Source of the DNA: a candidate division WOR-3 bacterium
GTDB lineage: Bacteria > Hydrothermota > Tepidihabitantia > Tepidihabitantales > DTDR01
Direction of reading: 5' to 3'
DNA length: 64,000 nt
Assembly: GCA_039801885.1 (NCBI GenBank)
Contig: JBDRVN010000002.1
Coordinates: 2,057 to 66,056, forward strand
The notes beneath the pieces are model-generated. The model worked only from the letters and a program-made list of their open reading frames with translations, was not told the DNA's origin and made no database searches. This document shows positions 1-62,094 of this stretch, in pieces (position 1 is the first letter of the stretch; the number at the start of each line of letters is the position of its first letter). The translations under genes and the position numbers were made by a program.

Positions 1-793
1 TTACACTATAAGATAATAGATTGTGAACCAATAAGGAGAATTTTTTGGGAGGAATTGGTAAATTATTCTTTTTTGCCACTTCTTCACAGAAAGGAAGTTT
101 TTCCTTAATAATCATTTCTAAGAATTTCAAGATGTTGTCAGAATATTTTTTAGGACCTTCTTTGGTGATAATTTCATATAGGATAATTCCTAAGGAATAA
201 AAATCTGTTCGTGGATCAATATAAGTTCCTTTTAATAATTCCGGTGCGCAATAACCAATTGTTCCACCAATTTCTAAAGAAAGAGGCGCTATTTTTTCGG
301 TAAATCCAAAATCTAATAATTTAACAATTGGTTCCTTCTCACCATATTTATCAATTTTCATTGAAACAAGAATATGTTCAGGTTTTAAATCTCCATGGAT
401 TGCCGAAAAAGAATGGATAAAATCCAGAGCCTTTAAAATTTCCACCAGAACCAAAAGTAAGTCATCGTTATAGCCATTAGAGAAAAATTTATCAATTGGC
501 AAACCTTCAAAATATTCCATTGTAAAAAATGGTAAAGAATCCTCGGAATAATTGAAATCTAAAACAGTAATAATATTAGGATGATTAAAATGAGTAAGGA
601 AATAAAACTCTTTGGAAAGTCTTGAGAAATATTCAGGTTTTTCTTTATATTCAGGTTTTAATATCTTTAAAGAGATAATCCGGTCACTAATCAAATCTTT
701 TGCCTTATATACTTCACTAAATAGTCCATCTCCTAAAAAAGATAAAACTTGATATCTATCCTTTATTAAACTTCCGTCCTTAAAACCTGGCAT
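1..793 (-). CDS. Ser/Thr protein kinase, N-terminal kinase domain (partial, C-terminus beyond window start)
   Basis: Own translation of the minus strand from the ATG at 793 gives MPGFKDGSLIKDRYQ... It contains the catalytic loop HGDLKPEHIL, a DFG motif (LLDFGF) and an APE-like GYCAPE. It is missing from the ORF track because it runs off the window edge without a stop. Confidence 0.75.
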   Translation of the reverse strand, partial: MPGFKDGSLIKDRYQVLSFLGDGLFSEVYKAKDLISDRIISLKILKPEYKEKPEYFSRLSKEFYFLTHFNHPNIITVLDFNYSEDSLPFFTMEYFEGLPIDKFFSNGYNDDLLLVLVEILKALDFIHSFSAIHGDLKPEHILVSMKIDKYGEKEPIVKLLDFGFTEKIAPLSLEIGGTIGYCAPELLKGTYIDPRTDFYSLGIILYEIITKEGPKKYSDNILKFLEMIIKEKLPFCEEVAKKNNLPIPPKKFSLLVHNLLSYSV

Positions 794-837
794 ATATTTA
801 AATTATAACAAAAAAAATTAATAAGTCAAGAATAAAA

Positions 838-4754: not shown

Positions 4755-5693
4755 TTAAAAAACCTCCAATTCAAATTTTTCCGGATTGCATTTTTTAAAA
4801 GATACCTGTTTTGGCAAAATAATTTCTGCCGGTAGTTTGTATTTTCCCTTTTTTAAATTCACTGCGTTAACTATTACTTTAATATTTTTTATTTGTAATG
4901 TATCTAAAATATTTTCTGGACCACGGACAACAATCTGACAGGTTTTTGGTTCTAATTTTATTTTTAGATTACCAATAATATTTATCGGAACATTTTTAAA
5001 CTCTTTTTCAATTATCTTGACAAAATAAAATTGTAATTTAATTTCTTCTTTTTCTGGTTGGAAATAATTTTGATTGGGATTTATAAGATAAACATTTCCT
5101 TCGGCATAATATTGATTTCTTATAGAATCAAAAAGGATTTTAAATTTCTTTAGATTTAATGATTCCGTAGAAATTTCCTTTAAAAAATCTAATTCACTTT
5201 TTGGTCCTTTTACTTTTATTTTTTCTTCAGAAGTTTTTACTAAGAAATAATCGTCTCTTTCTTCTTTAAAAACAGGGTTTATTTTTAACTCTTTTTCAAC
5301 AATTTTATCAATCTCAATTTCTAAATAATTAGGGAAGTAAGAAATTAATTGTAAATCTTTAATATTTCTAATCTGTTCTAAATCAATATATAAGCGAAAA
5401 CGATAAGGAAATTTTTCTATCGGTGTTTTTAAAATCTGGTTAAAATCTAATTTATATTCTCTTAGATGTTTTTGGTTATTTAAAAAATTCCTTCCTTTAC
5501 TTCTTATTTCACAAGTAATTTCTTGCGGTGATTGTTTTAATATAAAAATCTCTTGGGTAATTTTATTTATCTTTATCTTTATCTTTATCTGTAAGTTATG
5601 TTCCTTTTCCAAAACCGCTAAAAACCAAAGAAAAAGGGCAAAGAAAATACTGATAATTGTTATTGTCGGGAATCTTTTTGGCATATCAAACAA
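4755..5693 (-). CDS. Membrane-anchored hypothetical protein (possibly YbbR-like repeat protein)
   Basis: 312 aa with an N-terminal TM segment. Its composition is low-complexity and rich in K, I and E. I recognise no confident family. Confidence 0.4.
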   Translation of the reverse strand: MFDMPKRFPTITIISIFFALFLWFLAVLEKEHNLQIKIKIKINKITQEIFILKQSPQEITCEIRSKGRNFLNNQKHLREYKLDFNQILKTPIEKFPYRFRLYIDLEQIRNIKDLQLISYFPNYLEIEIDKIVEKELKINPVFKEERDDYFLVKTSEEKIKVKGPKSELDFLKEISTESLNLKKFKILFDSIRNQYYAEGNVYLINPNQNYFQPEKEEIKLQFYFVKIIEKEFKNVPINIIGNLKIKLEPKTCQIVVRGPENILDTLQIKNIKVIVNAVNLKKGKYKLPAEIILPKQVSFKKCNPEKFELEVF

Positions 5694-6031
5694 AAGGCAA
5701 TAGCATAATCTTTAATATGAGAAATTGAAGAATATACCTCTTTATCTTTTAAAAACTCCTTTACCTTTCCTTTACCAAAGATTTTTGGAATTTTATTAAT
5801 ATTTTTTATCTCAATATCTTTCAAAGGAAAAATCTTTTTTGCTGCCTTGATAAAACTCTCTTTTAAAGCAAACCTGCCCGCATAATGAAGATACTTCTTT
5901 TCTTTAAATTTCTCACAATATTTAATCTCTCTTTCGGAAAAGACCTTTTTTAAACTTTTTTTCTTTTTATTCCTAACCATTTTCTTAACTCTTTTTACAT
6001 CAATAATATCAATACCAATTCCGTAAATCAT
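5660..6031 (-). CDS. acpS: Holo-[acyl-carrier-protein] synthase AcpS
   Basis: 123 aa. It starts MIYGIGIDIIDVKRV and has the AcpS length and motifs. Confidence 0.85.
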   Translation of the reverse strand: MIYGIGIDIIDVKRVKKMVRNKKKKSLKKVFSEREIKYCEKFKEKKYLHYAGRFALKESFIKAAKKIFPLKDIEIKNINKIPKIFGKGKVKEFLKDKEVYSSISHIKDYAIAFCLICQKDSRQ

Positions 6032-8057: not shown

Positions 8058-8130
8058 GGGGCAGTAGTTCAGTGGGAGAACGCCTCGTTCGCAACGAGGA
8101 GGTCGGCGGTTCAAATCCGCTCTGCTCCAA
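8058..8130 (+). tRNA. tRNA-Ala (anticodon CGC)
   Basis: Cloverleaf read by hand. Acceptor ggggcag pairs with ctgctcc, with the G3:U70 Ala identity pair. The anticodon loop is ttCGCaa. The T-loop is ggttcaaatcc. Confidence 0.8.
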
Positions 8131-8151: not shown

Positions 8152-8694
8152 ATGGTTCCCAAGAGAGTTTTTTTTACTAAGGGTGTTGGTAAACATCGTG
8201 ACCGCCTTTCGTCTTTTGAGGCGGCTTTGCGCGATGCGAGCATTGCCCAGTTTAATATTGTCCAAGTATCAAGTATTTTACCACCAGCTTGTAGAATTAT
8301 TTCTAAGCATCAAGGATTAAGATATGTTGTCCCTGGAGAAATTATTTTTTGTGTAATGAGTAGTAATGCCACTAATGAGCCTCATCGGTTAATTGCTGCT
8401 TCGGTAGGTGTGGCAATCCCACGGGATAAAAATCAGTATGGTTATCTTTCGGAATATCATTCTTTTGGTGAATCAGAAGTAAAGGCAGGAGAATATGCCG
8501 AAGATTTGGCAGCCCAAATGTTGGCAACTACCTTGGGAGTAGAATTTGATCCAAATACCAGTTATGATGAAAGGAAAGAGATTTGGAAGATTTCTGGGAA
8601 AATATATCGGACAATGAATATTACCCAAACAGCAATTGGTGATAAAAATGGGCTTTGGACAACGGTTGTTGCTTGTGCAGTTTTGATACCATGA
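8152..8694 (+). CDS. pdaD: Pyruvoyl-dependent arginine decarboxylase (PdaD family)
   Basis: 180 aa. It has the N-terminal FFTKGVGKH signature and an internal Ser-Ser (VSSILPP) at the expected self-cleavage site. GC content is noticeably higher than in the flanking genes. Confidence 0.8.
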
Positions 8695-9710
8695 AAGAGG
8701 AATTTTTAAAAGAACCAACAAAGCCTTTCGAAGTAAATCCCAATGATTCAGTGTCTGATGTTTTGAAAAAGATGGAAAAGATTTCTTTTCAAGGAAGGAC
8801 ATTGGCGCTGGCGTTAAATGTCTGGGAGAAAATGCTTTCGGACGATGTGATAATCTTTTTAGGTTTAGCCGGTGCAATGATTCCAGCTGGAATGAGGAAG
8901 ATAATTGTCTATTTAATAAAAGAACGGTTGATTGATTGTCTTGTTTCTACCGGTGCCAATCTTTTTCACGATATTCACGAAATAAGGGGAAAATATCATT
9001 ATCTGGGAAACCCTAATGTGGATGATACTTTATTAAGAAAATGTAAGATTGATAGAATTTACGATACCTTTGCTAGTGAAGACGAGTTTATTGATACTGA
9101 TAATTTTATTATTGCCCTTTGTGAAAAATTTGACCAGAAAAGGTTTTATTCTACAAGAGAGTTTTTATATCTTTTAGGTAAAGAATTAACCGAATTTCAA
9201 GAAGAGGGGATTGTGAATACTGCTTATAAATTCAATTTTCCGATTTATTGTCCAGCAATTGGTGATTCTTCCATCGGTATTGCTTTAACGGAGGGCAAAA
9301 GAAAGGGAAAGATTGATATTAAGTTTGATATTATAAAAGATGTTTACGAGACTGCTTATTTAACTTCTTTGAAAAAATCTGGAGTTATATATATTGGTGG
9401 CGGAGTGCCGAAAAATTTTATCCAGCAAACTGAGGTAACTGCTCCTTTCTTGGGATTTAAAACTCACGGTCATTCCTATGCTATTCAATTTACTATGGAT
9501 GCACCTCATTGGGGAGGTCTTTCTGGTTGTACCTTTTCCGAAGCACAATCTTGGGGGAAAATTGCCTTAGATGCCAAGATGGTTACTTGCTATTGTGATG
9601 CGACAATTGCTTTGCCAATAGTTGTTTCTGCCTTGGCACAAAAAAAAATAAAAAGAGAGAAAGTTATTCAATTTAAAGATTTAGATAAAGAGAATTTTAA
9701 GATAATTTAA
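8691..9710 (+). CDS. Deoxyhypusine synthase-like protein (DHS family; possibly homospermidine synthase-like)
   Basis: It aligns by eye with eukaryotic and archaeal DHS: [38 protein letters not shown] and [10 protein letters not shown]. An ATG at 8691 forms an ATGA overlap with the pdaD stop. Confidence 0.8.
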
Positions 9711-9723
9711 AAAGGAGGCAGAT

Positions 9724-10017
9724 ATGGCAATTGTTGATATGAGTGTTGTGCCAATTGGCACTAACACACCTAGTGTTAGTAAGTTTGTAAAAGAAGCGGT
9801 TGAAATTATCAAAAAATCCGGTCTAAAATATCAGGTAAATCCAATGGGAACAACAATTGAAGGCGATTTAGTTAAAATCTTTGATTTGGTAAAAGTAATT
9901 CATCAACATTTCTTCGTTCTTGGTGCCCAAAGAGTATTAACAACTATTAAGATCGACGAGCGAATTGATAAATATCAAACAATGGAAGATAAAGTAAAAA
10001 AAGCCTTAGGTGAATAG
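9724..10017 (+). CDS. MTH1187/YkoF-family small protein (DUF77)
   Basis: 97 aa. It reads MAIVDMSVVPIG...NPMGTTIEGD, which is the ferredoxin-like MTH1187/YkoF signature. SD aaaaggagg lies upstream. Confidence 0.7.
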   Translation: MAIVDMSVVPIGTNTPSVSKFVKEAVEIIKKSGLKYQVNPMGTTIEGDLVKIFDLVKVIHQHFFVLGAQRVLTTIKIDERIDKYQTMEDKVKKALGE

Positions 10018-10025
10018 GAGGATTT

Positions 10026-10313
10026 ATGCCTTCTTTATGGGAAAAAGTAAAAAATTGGCTAGAAGATACTACTAAGCAAGTATTAAAAGAAACCGAAGAT
10101 TTATCAAAAAAAGGAAGAATAAAAATACAGATTAGCTCTTTAAATCGGGAAATCGATAAAAAATTCTCTTACTTGGGCGGTTTAATTTATCAAATGATAA
10201 ATGAGGGTAAAATGAATATCGCTGAAGATGAGAATGTGAGAGAAGTGATAAACGAAATAAAGAGATTAGAAGAAGAATTAAAATTGAAAGAGGAGGAATA
10301 TAAAAAAGTTTAA
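10026..10313 (+). CDS. Hypothetical coiled-coil protein
   Basis: 95 aa, charged and helical. The SD is ggagg. Confidence 0.4.
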   Translation: MPSLWEKVKNWLEDTTKQVLKETEDLSKKGRIKIQISSLNREIDKKFSYLGGLIYQMINEGKMNIAEDENVREVINEIKRLEEELKLKEEEYKKV

Positions 10314-10390
10314 TTAATGAATAAAAAAAGAATATCAAGATTAAAAGAAGAAAAATTTTAATTTTTCTTTATCAAATATATAAAGAAAAA

Positions 10391-11167
10391 TTGTTTAAAA
10401 GGATTATCAATAAAAAAATGAAATCTATGAAGAAAATATTGGTAACTAATGATGATGGTATTCATTCTCCTTCTTTAAATTATCTTTATGAAAAATTAAA
10501 AAATTTAGGAGAGATTTATGTGTGTGCTTCTGATGAAAATCGCTCAGCCGCTAGTCATTCTTTTACTTTAAGAAAACCAATAAAAATTTGTGAGATAAAA
10601 AAGAACTGGTATAGCGTTTCCGGCACCCCAACGGATGCTGTTCTACTTTTTTATCATGCTATTTCTAATAAAAGTGTAGATCTGTTAATTGCCGGAATAA
10701 ATGATAGCCCTAATTTAGGAGAAGATATTTTATATTCGGGAACAGTTGCCTGTGCTTTAGAAGGCACAATTTTGGGGATTAATTCCTTTGCGGTCTCTTT
10801 TGTGGAGAATAATAAGAATTTAGAAATTGCCTTACATTTGATTTATAATCTGGCAAAAAATATCTTGAAATACGGTTTGCCAAAAAAGACCTTTTTAAAT
10901 ATTAATATTCCTAATAAAGAGATAAAAGGAATAAAGATAACGAAATTAGGAAAAAGAATATATAAAGATATGGCTATTCCGGTTAAAAAAGAGAATGATT
11001 TATGTTATATTATCGACGGTGAGATGGATTTTATTAAGAAAAGCGGGACTGATTTTGAGGCAATAGAAAAAGGTTATATCTCTATAACTCCCCTCCATTT
11101 AGATATGACCAATTACCAAGTAATAAAAAAATTGGAAAAAAGATTTAAAAATCTTTTAAAAATTTAA
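10391..11167 (+). CDS. surE: 5'/3'-nucleotidase SurE
   Basis: It has the KKILVTNDDGIHSPSL N-terminal motif. The true start is probably one of the internal Met codons (about 10418-10427). Confidence 0.85.
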   Translation: MFKRIINKKMKSMKKILVTNDDGIHSPSLNYLYEKLKNLGEIYVCASDENRSAASHSFTLRKPIKICEIKKNWYSVSGTPTDAVLLFYHAISNKSVDLLIAGINDSPNLGEDILYSGTVACALEGTILGINSFAVSFVENNKNLEIALHLIYNLAKNILKYGLPKKTFLNINIPNKEIKGIKITKLGKRIYKDMAIPVKKENDLCYIIDGEMDFIKKSGTDFEAIEKGYISITPLHLDMTNYQVIKKLEKRFKNLLKI

Positions 11168-11168
11168 A

Positions 11169-11648
11169 ATGGTTATTAAAAAAATAGTAATTACGGTATC
11201 TTTAAGTTTATTATTTATTTTCCTTTCTTTTTTTATTAGCAAGTTAGTAAGAAGAATTCTGCAAGAAAAGAGAATCGAAAGACGGATAGTTAAATTAATA
11301 GATAATTTTATATTCTACTCAATTTTATTTATTGGTTTATTAGTTATTTTGGGATATTTAAAAGTAAACATAGCCGGTTTGATAGCTGGTGCTGGAATTA
11401 TTGGTTTGACAATCAGTTGGGCATTAAGCGATATAATGAGGAATATTATTGCTGGTTTACTTTTACTAATTATGCGACCTTTTAAAATCGGAGATAGAAT
11501 TAGTATTCAAGGATTTGAAGGTATCGTGAGAAGCATAAGTTTAAGATATACCTTAATTGAAAAAGATGATGGGGAGAAAGTTTTAATTCCCAATGTAAAC
11601 ACCCTAACCAATCCAGTAATTATAAAAGAAATTAAAGACCCAATTTGA
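11169..11648 (+). CDS. Small mechanosensitive-channel (MscS-like) family membrane protein
   Basis: 159 aa with TM helices and a channel-domain-like segment (RPFKIGDRISIQGFEG). Confidence 0.6.
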   Translation: MVIKKIVITVSLSLLFIFLSFFISKLVRRILQEKRIERRIVKLIDNFIFYSILFIGLLVILGYLKVNIAGLIAGAGIIGLTISWALSDIMRNIIAGLLLLIMRPFKIGDRISIQGFEGIVRSISLRYTLIEKDDGEKVLIPNVNTLTNPVIIKEIKDPI

Positions 11649-11687
11649 TTGACTTTAAATAATAATTTAAATATAATAATTAAATAA

Positions 11688-11758
11688 GCGGGTATAGTGT
11701 AATGGTAGCACGAAGCCTTCCCAAGGCTTTAGTGGGGGTTCGAATCCCCTTACCCGCT
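11688..11758 (+). tRNA. tRNA-Gly (anticodon CCC)
   Basis: Acceptor gcgggta pairs with tacccgc. The anticodon loop is ttCCCaa. The T-arm is ggggg ttcgaat ccccc. The discriminator is U. Confidence 0.8.
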
Positions 11759-11772
11759 TTTGAATTAATTTT

Positions 11773-12603
11773 ATGAGGAAATTAAGTGTATTTTTTTTAG
11801 TTTTTTTACAAAGTTTAGCCTTTAAAATTTATTTTGATTATGATAATTGGGAAACAAGATTTATAAGAGAACCCTCGGATACATTAAAAATACAAGATTT
11901 AAATTATCAGATAAAAAGTTATTTACGTTCACTGATTTATGATGACGAGAAAACCTTAGATGAATTTTTATTTTTAAATCCTCGAATTGAAAGACGATTT
12001 AATCATTTATCTTTAAATTATCGGGAAGAAAAAAGAAATTTTCTTTCTGATGGTAGCCAAATAATTGAATACTCATTGCCTCTTAAATCAAATATTTTAA
12101 TGATAGTAACTAAGAAAACCGGTGAAGGTATGCCAATCGGGGAGCTTGCTTGTCCATTATGTAAAAGACCTTGGCCAAAAGATTTACCAATTCCGGAAGG
12201 TGTAAAACTTATTCCTTATGAGGAACCAAACATTATAAAAGAAAATTATACGGGAATAATTATTGATTGTCGTCATCTATCTTTAAAACCAGCAATTTTC
12301 CCAAAAATTTATAATGAGGATTTAAAAGAGGTTTATTCTGTTAATTTTTGCGATTCCTTAAGTTTGATAAATAATGGACTTGTTTCGTATGTTAAAACTT
12401 TAGATGAGGCTTATCACCATAAAAAAGCTGGTTCTTTTCCTCTATACATCTCAGCATTAAAAACCTTTGGAAAAAACAAATGTGATATTGTTATTTCTAA
12501 TAGCGATGCCTTAACTCTTCATAACTCTTTAAATAACCTTAAATTATTAGAAAAAGCTCGGGTAATAATTGTGTATAAAGATGCCAATATCTTTGAAAAA
12601 TAA
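11773..12603 (+). CDS. Hypothetical secreted protein
   Basis: 276 aa with an N-terminal signal-like segment and a CPLCKRPWP motif. I recognise no family. Confidence 0.4.
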   Translation: MRKLSVFFLVFLQSLAFKIYFDYDNWETRFIREPSDTLKIQDLNYQIKSYLRSLIYDDEKTLDEFLFLNPRIERRFNHLSLNYREEKRNFLSDGSQIIEYSLPLKSNILMIVTKKTGEGMPIGELACPLCKRPWPKDLPIPEGVKLIPYEEPNIIKENYTGIIIDCRHLSLKPAIFPKIYNEDLKEVYSVNFCDSLSLINNGLVSYVKTLDEAYHHKKAGSFPLYISALKTFGKNKCDIVISNSDALTLHNSLNNLKLLEKARVIIVYKDANIFEK

Positions 12604-14825: not shown

Positions 14826-15702
14826 AATTTCTTTAGGAATAGATATCGGTGGTACAAATCTTAAAATCGGCTTAGTAAAAAATAATAAAATTATAAAGAA
14901 AGGAATTTTTAAAACTGAAAAAAATTTTGATAATCAAAGATTTGGTGATTATTTAATTAAAATTATGGAGAAGTTTATAAAAGGTTATAAAATAGATAAA
15001 ATTGGTATCGGTATTGCTGGTTATGTTTTTTATGAAAAAGGGATATTAAAATTTTCGCCCAATTTACCGAGATTAAAAAATTTTCCTTTAAAAAAGATTA
15101 TTGAAAAATATTTTCAAGTTGAAACTTCTGTTTTAAATGATGCCGATGCAATGGTAATTGGTGAATATTTTTATCATAATAAAAGATATAAAAACTTGAT
15201 AACAATAACTTTAGGAACCGGTGTGGGTAGTGGAATTATTTTAAATAATAAATTACTTTTTAATAGTGAGTTTGGTCATACGATATTAATTCCTAATGGT
15301 TATTTATGTTCTTGTGGCAAAAAGGGTTGCGTGGAAAGCTATTTAGGAAGTTATGGAATGTTAAGGATAGCAAAAGATTTTTATAAAAAAGAAACAAAAG
15401 ATTTAACACCCCAAAAAATTTATGAGATGGCAAAGAAAAAAGATAAAAAAGCGTTAAAAACAATTGAGAGATATTCTTATTATTTGGCGATTGCTTTAAG
15501 TAATTTAACAAACTTATTTAATCCGGAAATAATTATATTAAATGGCGGAATAAGTAATATGGGAAGTTTATTGTTAAAATTTATAAAACCAATATTAAAA
15601 GAAAATATTTTTTATTTACCAAAAATAAAAATTTCCAATTTAAAAGATATTGCGGGAATTATTGGTGCGGTTAATTTTTTAAGGTTTGGCGGAGGTGGGT
15701 AG
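14803..15702 (+). CDS. ROK-family sugar kinase (glucokinase-like)
   Basis: It has the LGIDIGGTNLKIG ATP-binding motif and the ROK zinc motif CSCGKKGCVESY. The last about 16 nt overlap tRNA-Sec on the opposite strand. Confidence 0.8.
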   Translation: MKRKDQYKISLGIDIGGTNLKIGLVKNNKIIKKGIFKTEKNFDNQRFGDYLIKIMEKFIKGYKIDKIGIGIAGYVFYEKGILKFSPNLPRLKNFPLKKIIEKYFQVETSVLNDADAMVIGEYFYHNKRYKNLITITLGTGVGSGIILNNKLLFNSEFGHTILIPNGYLCSCGKKGCVESYLGSYGMLRIAKDFYKKETKDLTPQKIYEMAKKKDKKALKTIERYSYYLAIALSNLTNLFNPEIIILNGGISNMGSLLLKFIKPILKENIFYLPKIKISNLKDIAGIIGAVNFLRFGGGG

Positions 15703-15781
15703 GAATCGAACCTACCACAAGCCTTTTGGGCTTGCGAGCGGGTTTGAAGCCCGTCAGGCACACCAGCACCCATCCACCTCC
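15687..15781 (-). tRNA. selC: tRNA-Sec (selC), anticodon UCA
   Basis: The minus-strand read is 95 nt. The 8-bp acceptor GGAGGTGG pairs with CCACCTCC. The anticodon loop is CTTCAAA, which is UCA. The long variable arm has a 6-bp stem, caagcc with ggcttg. The T-arm is GGTTCGATTCC. The discriminator is G and a CCA is encoded. The architecture matches E. coli selC. Confidence 0.8.
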
Positions 15782-15863
15782 GATAAAAAAGTATATTAAA
15801 TTCTATCAAAAAATCAATCTTTCTTAAAACTTGACAATATTAAAAATATTGTTATAATTATTT

Positions 15864-16577
15864 ATGCCAAAAACTTTAATTATTTTCCCTACTTATAACG
15901 AAGCAGAAAACATTAAAGATATTATTAATACGGTATTAGATATTTCTTCCGATATCGATGTTTTGGTAATAGATGATAATTCACCGGATAAAACTTATGA
16001 AATAGTAGAGAGTATGGCAAAAGAAAACAAAAGAATAAATTTAATAAAAAGAGAAAAAAAATTGGGTTTAGGTACAGCTTATGTCCTTGGGTTTAAATAT
16101 GCGATTGAGAAAGGTTATGATTATTGTTTTGAAATGGACGCCGATTTTTCCCATAGTCCTCACGATATTCCGAGATTTTTAGCATTGATGAATGAATATG
16201 ATTTAGTTATTGGTTCCCGTTATATTTCCGGAATTTCGGTGGTTAATTGGCCATTAAAAAGATTATTATTAAGTTATTTTGCTAATATTTATGCCCAAGT
16301 TTTTACCGGCTGTCCCATAAAAGATTTAACCAGTGGTTTTAAATGTTATAAGGTCTCAGCATTAAAGAAGATTAATTTGGATAAGTTAAAGATGGATGGT
16401 TATGCTTTTCAAATTGAAATCCATTGGCATTTTTGGAGAAATAATTTTAAGATAAAAGAAATTCCGATTATCTTTGTGGAAAGACGTTCGGGTGAAAGTA
16501 AAATGTCAAAAAGAATTATTTGGCAGGCCTTTATCTTCGTTTTGAAACTCTTCTTCCGACGCCTTCTCAATCTTTAA
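15864..16577 (+). CDS. GT2-family polyprenyl-phosphate glycosyltransferase (dolichyl-phosphate mannose synthase-like)
   Basis: 237 aa with Dpm1/ArnC-like motifs: FPTYNE, VIDDNSPD, DADFSH. Confidence 0.8.
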   Translation: MPKTLIIFPTYNEAENIKDIINTVLDISSDIDVLVIDDNSPDKTYEIVESMAKENKRINLIKREKKLGLGTAYVLGFKYAIEKGYDYCFEMDADFSHSPHDIPRFLALMNEYDLVIGSRYISGISVVNWPLKRLLLSYFANIYAQVFTGCPIKDLTSGFKCYKVSALKKINLDKLKMDGYAFQIEIHWHFWRNNFKIKEIPIIFVERRSGESKMSKRIIWQAFIFVLKLFFRRLLNL

Positions 16578-17990
16578 AATTTCGTATCGCTCGTTGTTAA
16601 ATTCAACAATTTCACCAACTTTTTTATTGAGAAATTTTTCACCAAAGGGAGCGCAATAAGAAATAATATGCTCTTTTCCTTTTAAATCAAGAAAACGGAT
16701 ATCAAAGGGACCTACTAAAAAATAGTCAAATTCCTTATTAGTTTTTAATTCTTTTATCTTGATTTTTGTTCCCGGCTCAACAAATTCACCGGTAATTTTG
16801 GAAAAATCAATTGGTTGAGAAACTTTTAATTCTTCGGTTAACTGTTTTAGCCAACTCAAAAGTCTTTGGCGTTCTTCCTTGGCAATCTTATACTCATAAT
16901 TTTCACTTAAATCACCATGACTTCTTGCTCTTTGTAAATCTTCGGCATTCTTCTTTAATTTTTCATTCAAAATTCTTAACTCTTCTTTTGCCTTTTCAAT
17001 TCCCTGTTTAGTATGGTAAATAACCTTCCTCTCTTTTTTCTTAAAAAAACTTTTTAAGGCTTCTTTTTCGTGGGGTTTGAAGAGGGATAAAGAAAGTATT
17101 CGTTCTTTAATATTGGTTAATTCTTCTTCATCAATATTTCCTTCTTCCAAAATTTTAAACATCATCTTTTTTAAAAAGGCAAAGTACTCTTTTTTTTCTT
17201 TTAAGGAAAGCAGGTCAGCAATTCTCAATAAGATTTGATAGGTTTTAAATTTATCTTTTAAAAGGTTAAGTTTATTTTTTAAAAGATAAACAAATTCATC
17301 GATTTTTTCTAAGTAAGAATAAAAGATTTCTTCAATTTCTTCATCAGCTACTTCAATTTTATTTTTAATTTTCTTTTCAATCTTTTGAGTTGGTTGTTTT
17401 TTAAACTCCTTTTCTTTAGGTAATTTATTTGTTAATGAAAAATTGTTGAAAACAAAATTTATTGGATACTTTACAATTTTATCTTCGTTAATTTTTTTAA
17501 GTTCTATTTGGTCAAAGAGAAAATCATAAGAAATTATTTGGTAAGGAAAATTTTGATAATAAACTATTTTACCACAAGTAAAATTGTATAAAAAATTTTC
17601 TAATCTATTTAAGGCTTTTAAGAAATTATTTATATCGGTATAAAAAATCTCAGATTTTTCTAAAAACTTTTTTTCCTCTTCAGTTTGATAAACTGATTTC
17701 AAAAAGTTAATAATCTCCTTTTTTAACTCTTCCCTTGGTTGTAATTCAAATATTCTTTTTAAAACTTTTAATAAATCTTCTTTTTTATTAAGAAAATAAA
17801 AATGATCCTTGGCTAATTTTAAGAAAGTTAATTTTAAATCAATTTTTGATTTGGGTAGAGAGTCAGTTATCGTTAAAATAAGTTCACCAGAAACATCTTT
17901 CTCCTCACTAAAAATATTTAGCAAAAGATTTTCCAACTCAGAAAAATTCTTTTGTTTTATTAAATTTTTGATTTCTTCAAGAATTTTCAT
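16506..17990 (-). CDS. GreA/GreB-family transcription elongation factor with long N-terminal extension
   Basis: The C-terminal roughly 150 aa carry the Gre coiled-coil and FKBP-like domains (DLSENYEYKIAKEE...VGPFD...YCAPFGEKFLNKKVGE). The N-terminal roughly 330 aa are K/E/L-rich and not recognised. Confidence 0.65.
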   Translation of the reverse strand: MKILEEIKNLIKQKNFSELENLLLNIFSEEKDVSGELILTITDSLPKSKIDLKLTFLKLAKDHFYFLNKKEDLLKVLKRIFELQPREELKKEIINFLKSVYQTEEEKKFLEKSEIFYTDINNFLKALNRLENFLYNFTCGKIVYYQNFPYQIISYDFLFDQIELKKINEDKIVKYPINFVFNNFSLTNKLPKEKEFKKQPTQKIEKKIKNKIEVADEEIEEIFYSYLEKIDEFVYLLKNKLNLLKDKFKTYQILLRIADLLSLKEKKEYFAFLKKMMFKILEEGNIDEEELTNIKERILSLSLFKPHEKEALKSFFKKKERKVIYHTKQGIEKAKEELRILNEKLKKNAEDLQRARSHGDLSENYEYKIAKEERQRLLSWLKQLTEELKVSQPIDFSKITGEFVEPGTKIKIKELKTNKEFDYFLVGPFDIRFLDLKGKEHIISYCAPFGEKFLNKKVGEIVEFNNERYEILKIEKASEEEFQNEDKGLPNNSF

Positions 17991-18181: not shown

Positions 18182-20830
18182 TTAGTAGAGGATTATCTTT
18201 TTTACTTTTTTACCTTCTTCGATAAGGAAATAGACCCCTCTTTTAATTTTCCTTTCTGCTTTGCTACCGGTGGCATTATAAATAGAGATATTTTTTTGTT
18301 TTAGTTCTTTTAAAGAGAGGGTATTCAAAGAGGTAATACCTTTTTTCTCTTCGCCTTTCTTTATAGAATAAAGTTCTTGAGGTGGAATATAAAGCCAGAG
18401 TTCTAAGGTTTTATTCCCTTTTAAGGCATAAATCCAGCCGTTTACATAAGATAAGGCACCACCATCTTTTACTTTTTTATTGAAAGGTTCGGTGGGAATT
18501 TGGTCTAAAGGTAGCCATTCGTTATTTTCAATATTGTAGATATAAAATTCATTAGTATTATTTCCTTTCAAGGCATAAATATATTTTTCATTATCCGTTG
18601 TTAAAGAAGCACCGGGTCCGACTGTCTTTTTCTTTTGAGCGCTTGGCGTAAAGAAGAGAGGCATTGGTTCTTTTACTTCCCAAGAATCGAGAGCAGGATT
18701 ATAAACATAAAATTCATTACTCTTTCCTTTCAAGAAATAGAGGTATCGGTTTTGGAAATTAATTAAGGCACTTCCTTTTACTGCTCCTTTATTAAGAGTT
18801 CCTTTAGGAATACTCTTTAAGAAAACAAAGGTATCCTTTTCAATATCGTAACAAAGGAACTTATCAGAACCGCCGCCAATAGTAAAGTAGAGTAATTTCC
18901 CATTTTCATTTTCTAAATAAGCAATAGAAGCACCTTCCTTTATTTTGGCAACAGGAATATCTTTTAGTTTTTCCCAAATTTTGGTTTCTAAATTATAGAA
19001 ATAAAATTCATTAGTTTTATTTCCTTTTAAGAGATAGATTTTATTATTACCACTTGTTAAAGCACCACCTTTTACGCCTTTGTTTTTCTCTCCCTTTGGA
19101 ATATCTGCTTCTTGGTACCATTTATCTAAACGAGGGTTATATCGATAAAACTCAATACTATTATTTCCTTTAGTCGCATAGATATAATTATTGATAAATG
19201 TTAAAGCACCTCCGGAACCAATTCGGTATGGACTATATTCTAAGATAGGCATATCTCTTCTTAATACCCAACCGGAAAATCCAGGTGGTGGAACATAGGG
19301 TTTTTTACCGCCGAAAGTACCAACTAAAGTATCATTAGCAGGATTTTGGTCATAAATGTTATTAAGATAGGTTAAGACATTAAAATCACCTTCTTCAATT
19401 CTAAACATTGGGAAAAAGATAGTCCTTTCTTCACCTTCACCTAAGGCATAGACCATTTTATCCTGAAAATAGATTAATTCATCTTTGCTGTTTTTGATAA
19501 GGAAAGTAATTTTGAATGTTTCGGTATGATAACTATAATTCTTTACTTTTACTTGAGGTGAAATAAGAATATCGGTTTCATACTCGCCAATTGGTTGTAA
19601 GATTTCAACCAAACCAACATCACGGAAACTTAATGAGAAATCGTTATCAGAATAGAAATAATCAAACTTTTCATTGTTACTTAAATCCATATCATTTTCC
19701 AATATTGCCTTCATCACAATCTTATATTCATTTTCGCCTACATTAAAGGGAACAAAGGAAATCTCTCTTTCACTAAATCTTTCCATTGTTATTGATAGGG
19801 TATCACCATAAACAATTTGGTCATCTAAATAGATTTCACAAATTGCAAGAAATTCTTCGTCACAATTGCCACAGTTTTCAAAAAGTCCTACTGGAATAAC
19901 TTCTCCTTGTGGTACATAACCAACCGGATAGATAATTTCTTTTATTCCAACATCGTGATATTCACCTTCGTAGACTAAAACATTTTTTGTTAACTCATCA
20001 TTATAAGGGTTTTTATCTAAAGAAAATAAAGTTTTGGCAATAGCAACATATTCACCAGTCGAAGCATTCCAAGGATTAGATGCTTGAATAGTTAAAGTTT
20101 CTTCCGGTGCCAAATAGAGGTTATCAATTATTGTATAATAAACTAATTGGTTATTATTATTTTTAATGCTAATTTCTAAACTAAAATTGTTAGCCGCTTC
20201 CGTGCCGAAATTCTTAATGGTTACTTTTGGATAAATTAAAGAAGGAACTTCTATCTTTCTTGGTCTAAGAATATTGATTACACCAACATCATAAGGAGTT
20301 AATCTAATACCGGAAACATCATCAATATAACAGGAGTTAACACCAAAAAGTCCAACATTTCTAAAAGCAATAAAGATGGGAATTGAGTCAAATTGGGTTA
20401 AAGGGATTACTCTTAAAGAATATTCTTTGCCCTTAAAACCAAAGGCATCAACTCGGGTATAGAAATTCTCCGGTTTATTACCAGTAATTGATACCCAGAC
20501 TTCTAAAGATTCTCGGAAATTTTTATTATGTGCCCGATAATAGAATTTTAATGTATCGTTACCCGGAACTGGGAAAAGTTGTTTTGTTACAAGCCAATCA
20601 TCATTTCTTATATTCTTCTTTTCAAATCTGCTTCGGGCACAAGCCGGTGGTGAATAGTTTTTTGCCGGTGAGCGTCGCCAACAGACAATACCATTATCCA
20701 TATTGTATATCTGCCACCCCTCCGGCGGAAATTTTTTGTCAGAAAAGCTTTCATTAAGAATATTAGAAAAGACGAAAGAGAATATAATAATACTTAAAAC
20801 TAATACATTTTTATTTTTAAGATAAAACAT
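18182..20830 (-). CDS. Large secreted beta-propeller (Kelch-like repeat) protein with T9SS-type C-terminal sorting-like domain
   Basis: It has an N-terminal signal peptide. There are about six repeats of G(G)AL....IY.LKGN.T.EFY.YN in the 500-780 region. The C-terminus is ISIYNATGSK...GVYFLIEEGKKVKKIILY. The likely start is the ATG at 20830, after SD ggaggtg. The ORF-track GTG at 20836 is 2 codons upstream. Confidence 0.6.
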   Translation of the reverse strand: MFYLKNKNVLVLSIIIFSFVFSNILNESFSDKKFPPEGWQIYNMDNGIVCWRRSPAKNYSPPACARSRFEKKNIRNDDWLVTKQLFPVPGNDTLKFYYRAHNKNFRESLEVWVSITGNKPENFYTRVDAFGFKGKEYSLRVIPLTQFDSIPIFIAFRNVGLFGVNSCYIDDVSGIRLTPYDVGVINILRPRKIEVPSLIYPKVTIKNFGTEAANNFSLEISIKNNNNQLVYYTIIDNLYLAPEETLTIQASNPWNASTGEYVAIAKTLFSLDKNPYNDELTKNVLVYEGEYHDVGIKEIIYPVGYVPQGEVIPVGLFENCGNCDEEFLAICEIYLDDQIVYGDTLSITMERFSEREISFVPFNVGENEYKIVMKAILENDMDLSNNEKFDYFYSDNDFSLSFRDVGLVEILQPIGEYETDILISPQVKVKNYSYHTETFKITFLIKNSKDELIYFQDKMVYALGEGEERTIFFPMFRIEEGDFNVLTYLNNIYDQNPANDTLVGTFGGKKPYVPPPGFSGWVLRRDMPILEYSPYRIGSGGALTFINNYIYATKGNNSIEFYRYNPRLDKWYQEADIPKGEKNKGVKGGALTSGNNKIYLLKGNKTNEFYFYNLETKIWEKLKDIPVAKIKEGASIAYLENENGKLLYFTIGGGSDKFLCYDIEKDTFVFLKSIPKGTLNKGAVKGSALINFQNRYLYFLKGKSNEFYVYNPALDSWEVKEPMPLFFTPSAQKKKTVGPGASLTTDNEKYIYALKGNNTNEFYIYNIENNEWLPLDQIPTEPFNKKVKDGGALSYVNGWIYALKGNKTLELWLYIPPQELYSIKKGEEKKGITSLNTLSLKELKQKNISIYNATGSKAERKIKRGVYFLIEEGKKVKKIILY

Positions 20831-21019
20831 ACACACCTCCTGCTAAGTTTATTTCAATTATAAAAATACATTTTTAATGCCATAATTTAGAGAAATATTT
20901 TTAATAAGTTTATAGTTTTTAATGGCTTAAAAATATTACAAAATTAAAATTTAATTATGATGCGACATATATTTAATTAAATTGTAACTTTTTAAAATTG
21001 AAGGACTTTTTATATGCGA

Positions 21020-29812: not shown

Positions 29813-30528
29813 GTTTATTAGTGAAAAATATTTCTAAAAAATATGGCAAACGTTTTGTGTTAAAAGATGTTAGTTTGAAAATTGAAAAAGGAGAGATTGT
29901 TGGTCTTTTAGGACCAAATGGTGCGGGCAAGACGACCACCTTCCATATCATTATGGGATTTGTGAAGCCCGACGATGGTAAGATTAGTTTTTTTGAGAAA
30001 GATATCACCTTTTTACCTTCTTATCAACGGGCAAAATTGGGAATTAGTTATCTTACTCAAGAGCCTTCGGTTTTTTTAAAGTTAAGTGTGGAAGATAATC
30101 TAAAAGGAATAATGGAATTATTAGGTTATAAAAAAGAGGAGATTGAAGAGCGGGTTTCTTTTTTGTTAAATAAATTAGGATTAAATTATTTGAGAAAAGA
30201 AAAGACAAAAAATCTGTCGGGTGGTGAGAGAAGAAAAGTAGAGATTGCTCGGGCATTAACAATTCGTCCCTATTTTCTTTTATTAGACGAGCCCTTTACT
30301 GGTATCGACCCGATTTTTCGTAGTGAAATCCAAGAGATAATTTTAAATTTAAAAGAAGAAAATATCGGTATTTTAATTACCGACCATAATGTCCGAGAAA
30401 CTTTAGAGATTACAGACTATTCTTATCTTATTTATTCGGGCGAAATTCTTTTTTCCGGAATCAAAGAGGAATTGATTAATGATGAAAAGGTTAGGAAAGT
30501 TTATTTGGGAGAGAAATTTCGACCATGA
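29809..30528 (+). CDS. lptB: LPS export ABC transporter ATP-binding protein LptB
   Basis: It has Walker A LLGPNGAGKTT, the LSGGERRK signature and LLLDEP, and it is adjacent to rpoN. Confidence 0.85.
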   Translation: MSLLVKNISKKYGKRFVLKDVSLKIEKGEIVGLLGPNGAGKTTTFHIIMGFVKPDDGKISFFEKDITFLPSYQRAKLGISYLTQEPSVFLKLSVEDNLKGIMELLGYKKEEIEERVSFLLNKLGLNYLRKEKTKNLSGGERRKVEIARALTIRPYFLLLDEPFTGIDPIFRSEIQEIILNLKEENIGILITDHNVRETLEITDYSYLIYSGEILFSGIKEELINDEKVRKVYLGEKFRP

Positions 30529-31874
30529 AACAGGAATTTAGATTAGAACAGAGATTGATTTTGACACCTCAATTACTTTTAAATTTAAAACTCTTGGCTT
30601 TACCAATTTTAGATTTAGAAATGGTGATTGAACAAGAACTCGCTATTAATCCTTGTTTGGAGATTGAAGAAGAGAAAGGGCTTGAAGAGCCTTCAGAAGA
30701 GATAAAAACGGAAAACGAAGACGAATTCTCGGTGAGTGATTTGATGCCAGAAGAAAATTATTCTATCCCTACCCCCAGGGAGACAGAAGAGTTTGATATT
30801 TTTGACATTGCTAATCCTGCTCCTGTTACTTCAATCGATGAGCTTCTTACTAAATTGAGACAAAAGATTGATAAGGAAGATTATTCTCTTGCTGAGTTTA
30901 TTTGTAACAGTTTAGATGAAAATGGATTTTTAGAATTTTCGATAGAAGAGATTGCGCAAAGTTTGGGTGTGGAAGAAGAAAGGGTAAATAAGATTATTGA
31001 GATAATGAAAAAAATTGAGCCAGGAGGAATTGGCTCCCGGACTCTTCGCGAGGCATTGCTAGCCCAATTAGAGTTAAAAGGTTTTAGTAAAGATTCAATA
31101 GAGGTAAAGATATTAGAAGAGTGTGAGGAATTGATAAAAACTAAGAACTATAAGAGAATTGCGGCGAAATTAAAAACTAATGAAGCAAGAATAAAGGAAG
31201 CCTTTAATAACCTTACTAATTTAGAGCCCAGACCGTTAAGAAAGTATGGCTCGGCAAGGGCAGATTATGTAGTTCCTGATTTTAAAATTAAGATTGAAGA
31301 AGAAAAGATTAGTTTTGAATTTAATGAAGAAAATTTACCCCGGTTAAGAATTACGAATTATTATAAAGAAATTTTATTAAACCCTAATAGTTACGAAAAA
31401 GAGCAAGTAGATTTTGTGAAAAAGAAATTTAAAAATGCGGTGATGTTTATAAAAGCGTTAGATCAGAGGAGAGAGACTTTGAAAAAAATAATGGAATATA
31501 TTATTGAAAATCAGAAAGATTTCTTTTTAGTAAGTAGAGAAATTATTAAACCTCTTTCGATTAAAGAATGTGGCGAAAGGTTGGGAATCCATCCTTCTAA
31601 CATTTCGCGGGCAATAGCCGGTAAATATATTGAGACCCCTTTTGGGATTTTTGCGCTTCGTTCTTTTTTCTCTTCGGGCATGGGAGAAATTTCCAAATCC
31701 ACCATCAAAGCAAAAATAAAAAGTTTAATTGATAATGAAGATAAAAATAATCCGTTAACTGATGAAGAAATTGTTGATAAGCTTAAAGAAATGGGGATAA
31801 ATATTAAAAGAAGGACGGTTGCTAAATATCGCCAAGAGTTAAACATTCCTAAAACCAGTGAAAGAAAAAAATAA
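30525..31874 (+). CDS. rpoN: RNA polymerase sigma-54 factor RpoN
   Basis: It has the sigma-54 core-binding and DNA-binding regions, an HTH and the RpoN box ARRTVAKYR. Confidence 0.9.
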   Translation: MKQEFRLEQRLILTPQLLLNLKLLALPILDLEMVIEQELAINPCLEIEEEKGLEEPSEEIKTENEDEFSVSDLMPEENYSIPTPRETEEFDIFDIANPAPVTSIDELLTKLRQKIDKEDYSLAEFICNSLDENGFLEFSIEEIAQSLGVEEERVNKIIEIMKKIEPGGIGSRTLREALLAQLELKGFSKDSIEVKILEECEELIKTKNYKRIAAKLKTNEARIKEAFNNLTNLEPRPLRKYGSARADYVVPDFKIKIEEEKISFEFNEENLPRLRITNYYKEILLNPNSYEKEQVDFVKKKFKNAVMFIKALDQRRETLKKIMEYIIENQKDFFLVSREIIKPLSIKECGERLGIHPSNISRAIAGKYIETPFGIFALRSFFSSGMGEISKSTIKAKIKSLIDNEDKNNPLTDEEIVDKLKEMGINIKRRTVAKYRQELNIPKTSERKK

Positions 31875-34543: not shown

Positions 34544-34621
34544 ATATATAAGATAAAATTGCTCTTTGAAAATTTGGGAAGTGTGCCTTGAATGAAAAAT
34601 AGTCCCTTATAATTTTTCGCA

Positions 34622-36183
<1,562 letters not shown>

Positions 36184-36335
36184 TTACGAGTTATCTTTCA
36201 TTCAAGGCACGCTTCTTTTTTTATTTTTTATAAATATTTTTTTCTTTTTATCTCAAAATTAAACCCCACCTTTTAAAAGTCTTTTAAAAAATTATTTTTA
36301 TAAATTGACTTCTTTGGAAATATCTTTTAAAATTA

Positions 36336-48016: not shown

Positions 48017-48229
48017 GGAGAAATGATGCAGCAAGGTGTGGTTCTCCATCAGTCAAAACTTTTCCCCTAATTAAAAAGGGATCGGTGGTTTAAATCGAAA
48101 TTTGGAATGTGAAAAAAGAGAAAAATTATTAATTCTTATTTCCACATTTGCTAAACTTTTCCTGATAAAAAGGTTTAATTTTCTTGCTATTGATATTTTC
48201 TAAAAATTGATTATATTTTAATCTAAAGG

Positions 48230-48316
48230 AGAGGTGTCCGAGTGGACGAAGGAGCACGACTGGAAATCGTGTGCACACCCAAAAGGTGTGCCGTGGGTTC
48301 GAATCCCACCCTCTCC
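48230..48316 (+). tRNA. tRNA-Ser (anticodon GGA)
   Basis: The acceptor ggagagg pairs with cctctcc. The anticodon loop is ctGGAaa. The long variable arm is gcacacc caaaa ggtgtgc. The T-arm is gtggg ttcgaat cccac. Confidence 0.8.
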
Positions 48317-48335
48317 GTAAATTTTTATTTATTAA

Positions 48336-58098: not shown

Positions 58099-58115
58099 TA
58101 AAAGAAGCGGCGCCT

Positions 58116-61124
<3,009 letters not shown>

Positions 61125-61150: not shown

Positions 61151-61267
<117 letters not shown>

Positions 61268-61367
61268 AGTTTTTGTTTTTTAACCTTAATTAATTTAAAA
61301 TTAAGTAAAATTTTTAAAATTTATAAATCATTGAAAAATAAGAAATTAAATTAATAAAAAAATTTTT

Positions 61368-61458: not shown

Positions 61459-62094
61459 ATGTTAAATAAAAAGGGCTTTACATTAATTGAATTATTAGTA
61501 GTAATTTTAATTATCGGTATCCTATTAGCACTCATTATCCCCAACTTTGCCCTTTTCCAAGAAAGAGCAAGAAGAACCAGCGTCAGAAATAATATGCACG
61601 TGATCCAGACTGCCTTAGAAGCATGGGCGACTGACCATGGTGGTCAATATCCTTCTACGGATTTAGCAGGAGCATTGGAACCAGATGGATTAATGGCTTA
61701 TTATTTTCCTGGCGGCGACCCAATGATTGAGGATAAATTTGGTAATTTCCCAACTAATCCTTATACCGGTCTTGCTTATAATAGTGACGAATCTCCGGAA
61801 GAAGATCTTTTCTATGGCGAGCTTGAATTTGATGAGCCAGGTTTTAATGCAATGACTTGGGGCGGTGGTGAAGAATGTCCTTATCTTGAGTGGGAAGGCG
61901 AAGCCGCTGTTTCTGGAACAATTCATATTGGAATATATTATGATCCAAATACAGAGATTACCCAAGAGTATGGAATTGCTGGTTGGGGAAGATTGAATGA
62001 GGTAGGCGAAAATTATCCAATGTATGACATTTCTCCTGGCGCTGATGATTTCTTTGATGAAACATATTGGACATTCTTCGTGCTTCATAACTAA
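61459..62094 (+). CDS. Type IV pilin / pseudopilin (prepilin-type N-terminal cleavage/methylation domain)
   Basis: It starts MLNKKGFTLIELLVVILIIGILLALIIP, which is the prepilin peptidase site G|FTLIE. The C-terminal domain is acidic. Confidence 0.85.
   Translation: MLNKKGFTLIELLVVILIIGILLALIIPNFALFQERARRTSVRNNMHVIQTALEAWATDHGGQYPSTDLAGALEPDGLMAYYFPGGDPMIEDKFGNFPTNPYTGLAYNSDESPEEDLFYGELEFDEPGFNAMTWGGGEECPYLEWEGEAAVSGTIHIGIYYDPNTEITQEYGIAGWGRLNEVGENYPMYDISPGADDFFDETYWTFFVLHN

Follow-up and report, generated by a model that had tools for sequence, protein, structure and literature searches.

The 64-kb stretch of DNA analysed here (the window) carries selC, the gene for the selenocysteine tRNA (tRNA-Sec), on its minus strand, where it is packed tail to tail against a ROK-family sugar kinase gene. 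A selB gene, coding for the selenocysteine-specific elongation factor, lies 16 kb from selC; it is intact and of full length, and had been overlooked in the first-pass annotation. The coordinates of these and of the other features discussed below are given in Table 1.

Table 1. Features of the selC locus, of the rest of the window and of related loci. Positions are those of the window unless a locus is named; the parts of tRNA-Sec are written in minus-strand reading.
Feature	Position	Strand	Sequence, description or basis
selC, tRNA-Sec gene, 95 nt	15687..15781	minus	ARAGORN, Rfam RF01852, minimum-energy fold, conservation
tRNA-Sec, acceptor 5' strand, 8 nt		minus	GGAGGTGG
tRNA-Sec, positions 8-9		minus	AT
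tRNA-Sec, D-arm		minus	GGGTGC / TGGT / GTGCCT; 6-bp stem with three G.U pairs, 4-nt loop
tRNA-Sec, anticodon arm		minus	GACGGG / CTTCAAA / CCCGCT; at the base G.U and A.C, then four G-C/C-G pairs
tRNA-Sec, variable arm, 21 nt		minus	CGCAAGCC / CAAAA / GGCTTGTG; 8-bp stem, 5-nt loop
tRNA-Sec, T-arm		minus	GTAGG / TTCGATT / CCTAC; 5-bp stem
tRNA-Sec, acceptor 3' strand		minus	CCACCTCC, then discriminator G (G73), then CCA
Putative sigma-70-type selC promoter	15790..15817	minus	consensus scan and conserved layout
ROK-family sugar kinase gene, 299 aa	14803..15702	+	Pfam ROK 6.5e-55, residues 11-291
selB, selenocysteine-specific elongation factor, 623 aa	31878..33749	+	Pfam, TIGR00475, structure matches
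tRNA-Ala (cgc)	8058-8129		ARAGORN
tRNA-Gly (ccc)	11687-11759		ARAGORN
tRNA-Ser (gga)	48228-48317		ARAGORN
16S rRNA	34618-36184		
23S rRNA	58114-61124		
5S rRNA	61152-61268		
Insert between ROK stop and selC 3' end, L006	L006 4737-5269		144-aa zinc-ribbon + TM2-domain protein
Insert between ROK stop and selC 3' end, L007	L007 2887-4813		626-aa multi-pass membrane protein, no Pfam match
selD of CP070664.1, with in-frame TGA at 4954	L012 (CP070664.1) 4903-5937		TIGR00476, 324 bits when restored to full length
selA of CP070664.1	L012 (CP070664.1) 8535-9935		TIGR00474, 549 bits
selB of CP070664.1	L012 (CP070664.1) 10001-11944		

Run on the window, ARAGORN called a tRNA-SeC with anticodon tca at exactly the place where the first-pass annotation had put a 95-nt minus-strand tRNA-Sec. 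The Rfam model of this tRNA, RF01852, matched at 15691..15781 on the same strand with 72.7 bits (E 5.6e-13 for the whole window), compared with a gathering score of 47, and the match took in model positions 1-91 of 91. A covariance-model comparison of Sec with other tRNA types had been proposed as a check, and it came out in favour of Sec: RF01852 ranked first within the tRNA clan at this locus, and the weaker clan matches, the generic tRNA model included, were dropped. In addition, a structured tRNA-Sec pattern occurred once in the window and in none of 100 shuffles. Besides tRNA-Sec, ARAGORN found three ordinary tRNAs (Ala-cgc, Gly-ccc and Ser-gga); tRNA-Sec is the only one of the four with an encoded CCA end.

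The gene has the 8/5 arrangement, in which GGAGGTGG pairs with CCACCTCC over 8 bp and GTAGG with CCTAC over 5 bp to give a 13-bp acceptor/T coaxial helix. Both the sequence and ARAGORN place the anticodon UCA in the 7-nt loop CUUCAAA, and the SerRS identity elements are present as a long variable arm and G73. The anticodon stem is 6 bp long; its second pair is an A.C mismatch, next to a G.U pair. The 8-bp acceptor stem, the CTTCAAA loop, the GGTTCGATTCC T-arm, the G discriminator and the encoded CCA, all of which had been described earlier, hold in the sequence; the variable-arm stem had been put at 6 bp and is actually 8 bp, closed by a 5-nt loop. When the tRNA was folded with ViennaRNA, the minimum-energy and the centroid structures were both the 8/5 cloverleaf, with a fold energy of -47.2 kcal/mol compared with a mean of -33.2 for shuffles (z = -3.9). 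Because the copies in the window and in the related loci L005, L006 and L007 are identical, the lineage gives no covariation support, and the predicted structure draws on the family model and on thermodynamics.

These features are shared with bacterial tRNA-Sec as known from E. coli selC, Aquifex aeolicus and RF01852: the UCA anticodon, the 8-bp acceptor and 5-bp T-stem, the 6-bp D-stem with its 4-nt D-loop UGGU, the A8-U9 linker, the long variable arm, G73, the GGUUCGAUUCC T-arm and the pairing with a bacterial-type SelB that bears C-terminal winged-helix domains. The tRNA of the window departs from them in detail only, through its 8-bp/5-nt variable arm, the three G.U pairs of the D-stem and the A.C mismatch of the anticodon stem. 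In E. coli tRNA-Sec, binding of EF-Tu is blocked by the pairs C7:G66, G49:U65 and C50:G64, whereas the acceptor/T-stem junction has G-C, G-C and U-A in the window. The genomic setting also differs from that of bacterial selC, as the gene adjoins neither selA nor selB. Archaeal and eukaryotic tRNA-Sec likewise decode UGA and combine a 13-bp acceptor/T helix with a long variable arm and a 6-bp D-stem, but their helix is split 9/4 and not 8/5; moreover, the partner in the window is a bacterial SelB instead of eEFSec or aSelB, and the expected enzyme is SelA, not PSTK/SepSecS. Type II tRNA-Ser has a long variable arm and G73 in common with tRNA-Sec, and both are expected SerRS substrates. It differs from the tRNA-Sec of the window, however, in its 7-bp acceptor, its shorter D-stem, its larger D-loop and its delivery by EF-Tu, as can be seen by comparison with the tRNA-Ser(gga) of the window. 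In every structural respect that could be tested, the tRNA-Sec is a canonical member of the bacterial family. This selC is an already known kind of element, a textbook case that standard tools find at once.

A tRNA-pattern scan with one genome per species returned four loci. One of them, L004, belongs to an unrelated MAG and carries a different tRNA-Sec. The other three are L006 and L007, both titled "candidate division WOR-3 bacterium", and L005, titled "uncultured bacterium", in which the gene order is that of the window. The order of genes around selC is conserved in all three. We found that tRNA-Sec was identical to that of the window at 95 of 95 positions in these loci and in L001 and L002, while the identity of the flanks was 76-86% in L005, 89-90% in L006 and 82-84% in L007. 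An invariant tRNA amid diverged flanks therefore indicates strong constraint. The tRNA-Gly near selC is as invariant in the related assemblies as tRNA-Sec, and thus selC behaves like an essential tRNA. The ROK protein, by comparison, was 70% (L005), 85% (L006) and 82% (L007) identical to that of the window. An identical ROK protein is encoded in GCA_965649235.1, in GCA_039801925.1 and in one Logan assembly, at loci that are 99.3-99.6% identical to the window.

Upstream of G1 there is a -35 element TTGATT (15817-15812) and, after a 16-nt spacer, a -10 element TATACT (15795-15790) that ends 8 nt before G1. The match found in the consensus scan is not significant alone in AT-rich DNA. The layout TTGATT-16/17-TATA(C/A)T, ending 7-9 nt before G1, is kept in the window and in L005, L006 and L007, in which the spacer and the flanks have diverged, suggesting that the TTGATT/TATACT pair is the putative selC promoter. 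Good -35/-10 pairs precede the genes for tRNA-Gly and tRNA-Ser as well, the -10 ending 9-10 nt before the mature 5' end, and this placement implies very short leaders; the leader of tRNA-Ala is longer, with ~19 nt after its -10 box. It is conceivable, if rather unlikely, that selC, and maybe tRNA-Gly and tRNA-Ser too, are transcribed with almost no 5' leader in this thermophile-like WOR-3 clade. Speculatively, the primary tRNA transcripts would start at the mature end or 1-3 nt before it and so have leaders of 0-3 nt. If this were true, the RNase P step for the 8-bp acceptor stem would be unusual, minimal or dispensable. A short-leader selC would resemble eukaryotic tRNA-Sec, whose transcript has no leader.

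On the other strand, the segment 15831-15858 (+) matches the sigma-70 consensus perfectly, at 12/12 positions (TTGACA-16 nt-TATAAT), and has a TG upstream. Its -10 box ends 5 nt before the ATG of a family 2 glycosyltransferase (GT2) gene that starts at 15864, which suggests that this gene has a leaderless mRNA transcribed divergently from selC.

At its 3' end, selC overlaps the ROK kinase gene. The antisense overlap of about 16 nt noted in the first-pass annotation is real: it spans 15687-15702 and comprises the last 13 coding nucleotides and the TAG of an ORF that ends ...TTT GGC GGA GGT GGG TAG. These 16 nt are the complement of the CCA, of G73, of the acceptor 3' strand and of the edge of the T-stem. 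A further suggestion, that the stop of the kinase might be mis-called, did not stand up. No in-frame stop precedes the TAG at 15700-15702, the Pfam ROK domain extends to residue 291 of 299, and the overlap spans only a non-conserved GGGG tail and the stop codon. ROK orthologues in the three related assemblies are 297-299 aa long and are conserved to F295. Where the ORF abuts the tRNA (window and L005) the protein ends in GGGG, and where another gene intervenes before selC (L006 and L007) it ends in FKK or FKDK at the same length. Since the orthologues are conserved to F295 and their tails differ at a like length, the stop is correctly called and the overlap incidental. We conclude that the overlap is incidental tight packing of convergent genes and that the ROK kinase, which scored below the cut-off of the NCBIfam ROK glucokinase subfamily, is a neighbour and not part of the Sec system.

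Gene content varies at the selC 3' end among the related assemblies, as the inserts of L006 and L007 show (Table 1). In Enterobacteria, selC is an insertion site of genomic islands, for example the LEE island, and the likeness to those islands is that gene content differs exactly at the selC 3' end. In contrast to them, the L006 and L007 inserts come without an integrase, a direct repeat of the tRNA 3' end or a shift in GC. We considered a mobile element at this position and rejected it, as there was no integrase and no tRNA repeat of >=11 nt, and the inserts have a genome-like GC content of 27-30%.

The product of selB contains the Pfam domains GTP_EFTU, GTP_EFTU_D2, Beta-barrel_SelB, SelB-wing_2 and SelB-wing_3 and scored 367.1 bits against the NCBIfam equivalog TIGR00475, for which the cut-off is 242.25. 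Its alignment to two solved structures, Aquifex aeolicus SelB (4zu9; 6e-67, residues 3-620) and ribosome-bound E. coli SelB (5lzb), runs from end to end and includes the SECIS-binding winged-helix domains at the C-terminus. NCBI lists a protein of 100% identity as [quoted passage not shown]. Among the matches listed in the database search, at least about a dozen SelB clusters were 74-91% identical and >100 more were 42-48% identical; the named organisms were mostly WOR-3, with one Stahlbacteria. Judged by such sequence matches, SelB is widespread in WOR-3 and Stahlbacteria. An extension of the protein by 35 codons past the selB stop was also considered and found to be unsupported, the SelB-wing_3 profile being complete by residue 621 of 623. 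The gene directly upstream of selB (30525-31874) encodes sigma-54.

By ORF annotation, in which the longer window ORFs (about 60) were compared with Pfam and some also with NCBIfam, neither selA nor selD turned up in the 64 kb of the window or in the adjoining 10 kb upstream (L008). A search of the window, first strict and then loose, and a like search of loci L005-L008 and L010 returned no single-TGA-interrupted ORFs resembling selenoprotein genes. The ORF pairs that were joined by one in-frame TGA were spurious antisense or low-complexity frames, plus the continuation past the selB stop. TGA is the stop codon in 16 of the 53 window genes called, and so UGA is not reassigned genome-wide. The first-pass annotation had taken a bacterial 8/5 tRNA-Sec to imply recoding of UGA to Sec, a claim now backed by two independent tRNA callers, by the fold and by the intact selB 16 kb downstream. 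Because selC and selB occur in the same window, the organism almost certainly makes selenoproteins by the standard route, and selA, selD and the selenoprotein genes presumably lie elsewhere in this genome. In the literature on WOR-3 with selenocysteine, only an incidental co-mention was found.

All three protein genes of the pathway were present in the complete WOR-3 genome CP070664.1, a distant relative whose SelB is 44% identical to that of the window. There, selA directly precedes selB and selD lies 3.6 kb upstream of selA, so that the trio falls within 7 kb. An HGD-D/BcrAD activase pair sits amid the selD-selA-selB stretch. This selD is itself a selenoprotein gene: its in-frame TGA falls in the active-site motif KCAG-U-ASKL, a hairpin follows closely, and the gene caller had shortened the product to 312 aa; the truncation of selenoprotein genes by gene callers, which the first-pass annotation had foreseen, can thus be seen in this active-site TGA. 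The complete Sec trait is demonstrated for the phylum by CP070664.1, and for the genome of the window we infer it.

Three other readings of the locus were weighed. The lineage may have lost Sec use, with selC and selB persisting as non-functional leftovers, and the finding of no selA, selD or selenoprotein gene in ~74 kb of this genome is what such decay would predict. However, 74 kb covers little of the genome, given that a related near-complete contig measures ~1.5 Mb, and bacteria often have their sel genes dispersed over the genome. Decay also sits poorly with a tRNA that is 95/95 identical while its flanks differ by 10-24% and that matches tRNA-Gly in conservation, with promoter-like elements that are conserved, and with an intact selB of full length, whose product is 74-91% conserved across a dozen or more related clusters. 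We consider this history very unlikely. Even less probable is a tRNA-Sec-like non-canonical tRNA that inserts Ser or Cys at UGA. Allo-tRNAs, which have an 8/4 or 9/3 fold, and selC-like tRNA-Cys exist in uncultured bacteria, and a window in which selA and selD were not found would suit either. The fold of the window tRNA, however, is 8/5 and neither 8/4 nor 9/3; its discriminator is G73, a Ser/Sec-type identity element, and that of tRNA-Cys is U73; the factor encoded nearby is a canonical full-length SelB; and the complete WOR-3 genome has a canonical selA and a Sec-containing selD, which together make this reading hardly credible. Lastly, the idea that the Sec call is wrong and the tRNA is an ordinary type II one, for Ser or Leu, or a UGA suppressor derived from such a tRNA, could appeal to the tRNA-Ser-like variable arm and G73 and to the presence in the window of a true tRNA-Ser(gga) whose variable arm is similar, but it is effectively refuted by the 8/5 stems, 13-bp helix and 6-bp D-stem with 4-nt loop (7/5 and a 3-4-bp D-stem in tRNA-Ser), by the advantage of the tRNA-Sec model over the generic tRNA model at the locus, by the UCA anticodon and by the dedicated SelB encoded nearby. 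Collectively, we are confident that 15687-15781 on the minus strand is a functional selC of an uncultured, low-GC candidate division WOR-3 bacterium, probably a thermophile.

How this selC would act can be outlined by analogy with E. coli and Aquifex. SerRS would charge tRNA-Sec with serine, using the long variable arm and G73, and SelA would turn Ser-tRNA-Sec into Sec-tRNA-Sec with selenophosphate from SelD; both aminoacylation and conversion to Sec are taken from these systems. The 13-bp (8+5) acceptor/T helix would direct the tRNA to SelB and not to EF-Tu. SelB would then bring Sec to the ribosome, bound both to this helix and to a SECIS hairpin that immediately follows an in-frame UGA.

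The GC content is ~28% for the window, 52-56% for the rRNAs and 60% for tRNA-Sec, and a low-GC genome with high-GC rRNA and tRNA is typical of thermophiles. Genes for LptC, BamA, TamB and sigma-54 are also present in the window and speak for a diderm (two-membrane) cell. Its rRNA genes are unlinked, with ~22 kb of protein-coding genes and tRNA-Ser between 16S and 23S-5S and no spacer tRNAs. The promoter and leader before the 16S unit are almost identical to those before the 23S-5S unit (cTTGAC[a/t]-17 nt-TATATT ... ttgctctttgaaaatttgg), and this near-identity suggests that they are transcribed independently from duplicated control regions. The 23S match is 3,011 nt long, compared with a model of 2,925 positions, and contains several insertions in the alignment.

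Several protein genes of the window deserve mention in their own right. A pyruvoyl-dependent arginine decarboxylase gene (8152-8694, +) overlaps a deoxyhypusine-synthase-like gene (8655-9710, +) by 40 nt, a pairing that is more familiar in archaea and that points to an agmatine/homospermidine-type polyamine pathway. Downstream of the GT2 gene, and convergent with it, is a gene for a 494-aa protein (16506-17990, minus) whose 3' end overlaps the GT2 gene by 72 nt. In this protein the GreA/GreB N- and C-terminal domains are found only in the last 170 residues and are preceded by an uncharacterised ~320-aa extension; the protein is conserved in L006 and L007. An 884-aa protein (18182-20836, minus) combines Kelch repeats with a cleaved-adhesin-like N-terminal domain and matches CARDB weakly; this probable surface protein is also conserved in the sister species. 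A pilin is encoded at 61459-62094, and no exact match to it is on record. Off the 5' end of the window runs the gene for a 1,756-aa fusion protein (window 1-801, minus, continuing in L008 4585-9855), which combines Ser/Thr kinase, AAA_16, TPR, GAF and sigma-54-activator domains.

The matching SelB had already been named by the NCBI pipeline, and the finding opens no new question. For annotation, it means that UGA-Sec recoding should be allowed for when this genome is read, as standard callers will shorten selenoprotein genes elsewhere in it; given the 312-aa call in CP070664.1, selD is the first suspect for such truncation. For the biology of the group, the finding adds one lineage, a hot-spring-type, low-GC WOR-3 clade, to the bacteria with canonical Sec.
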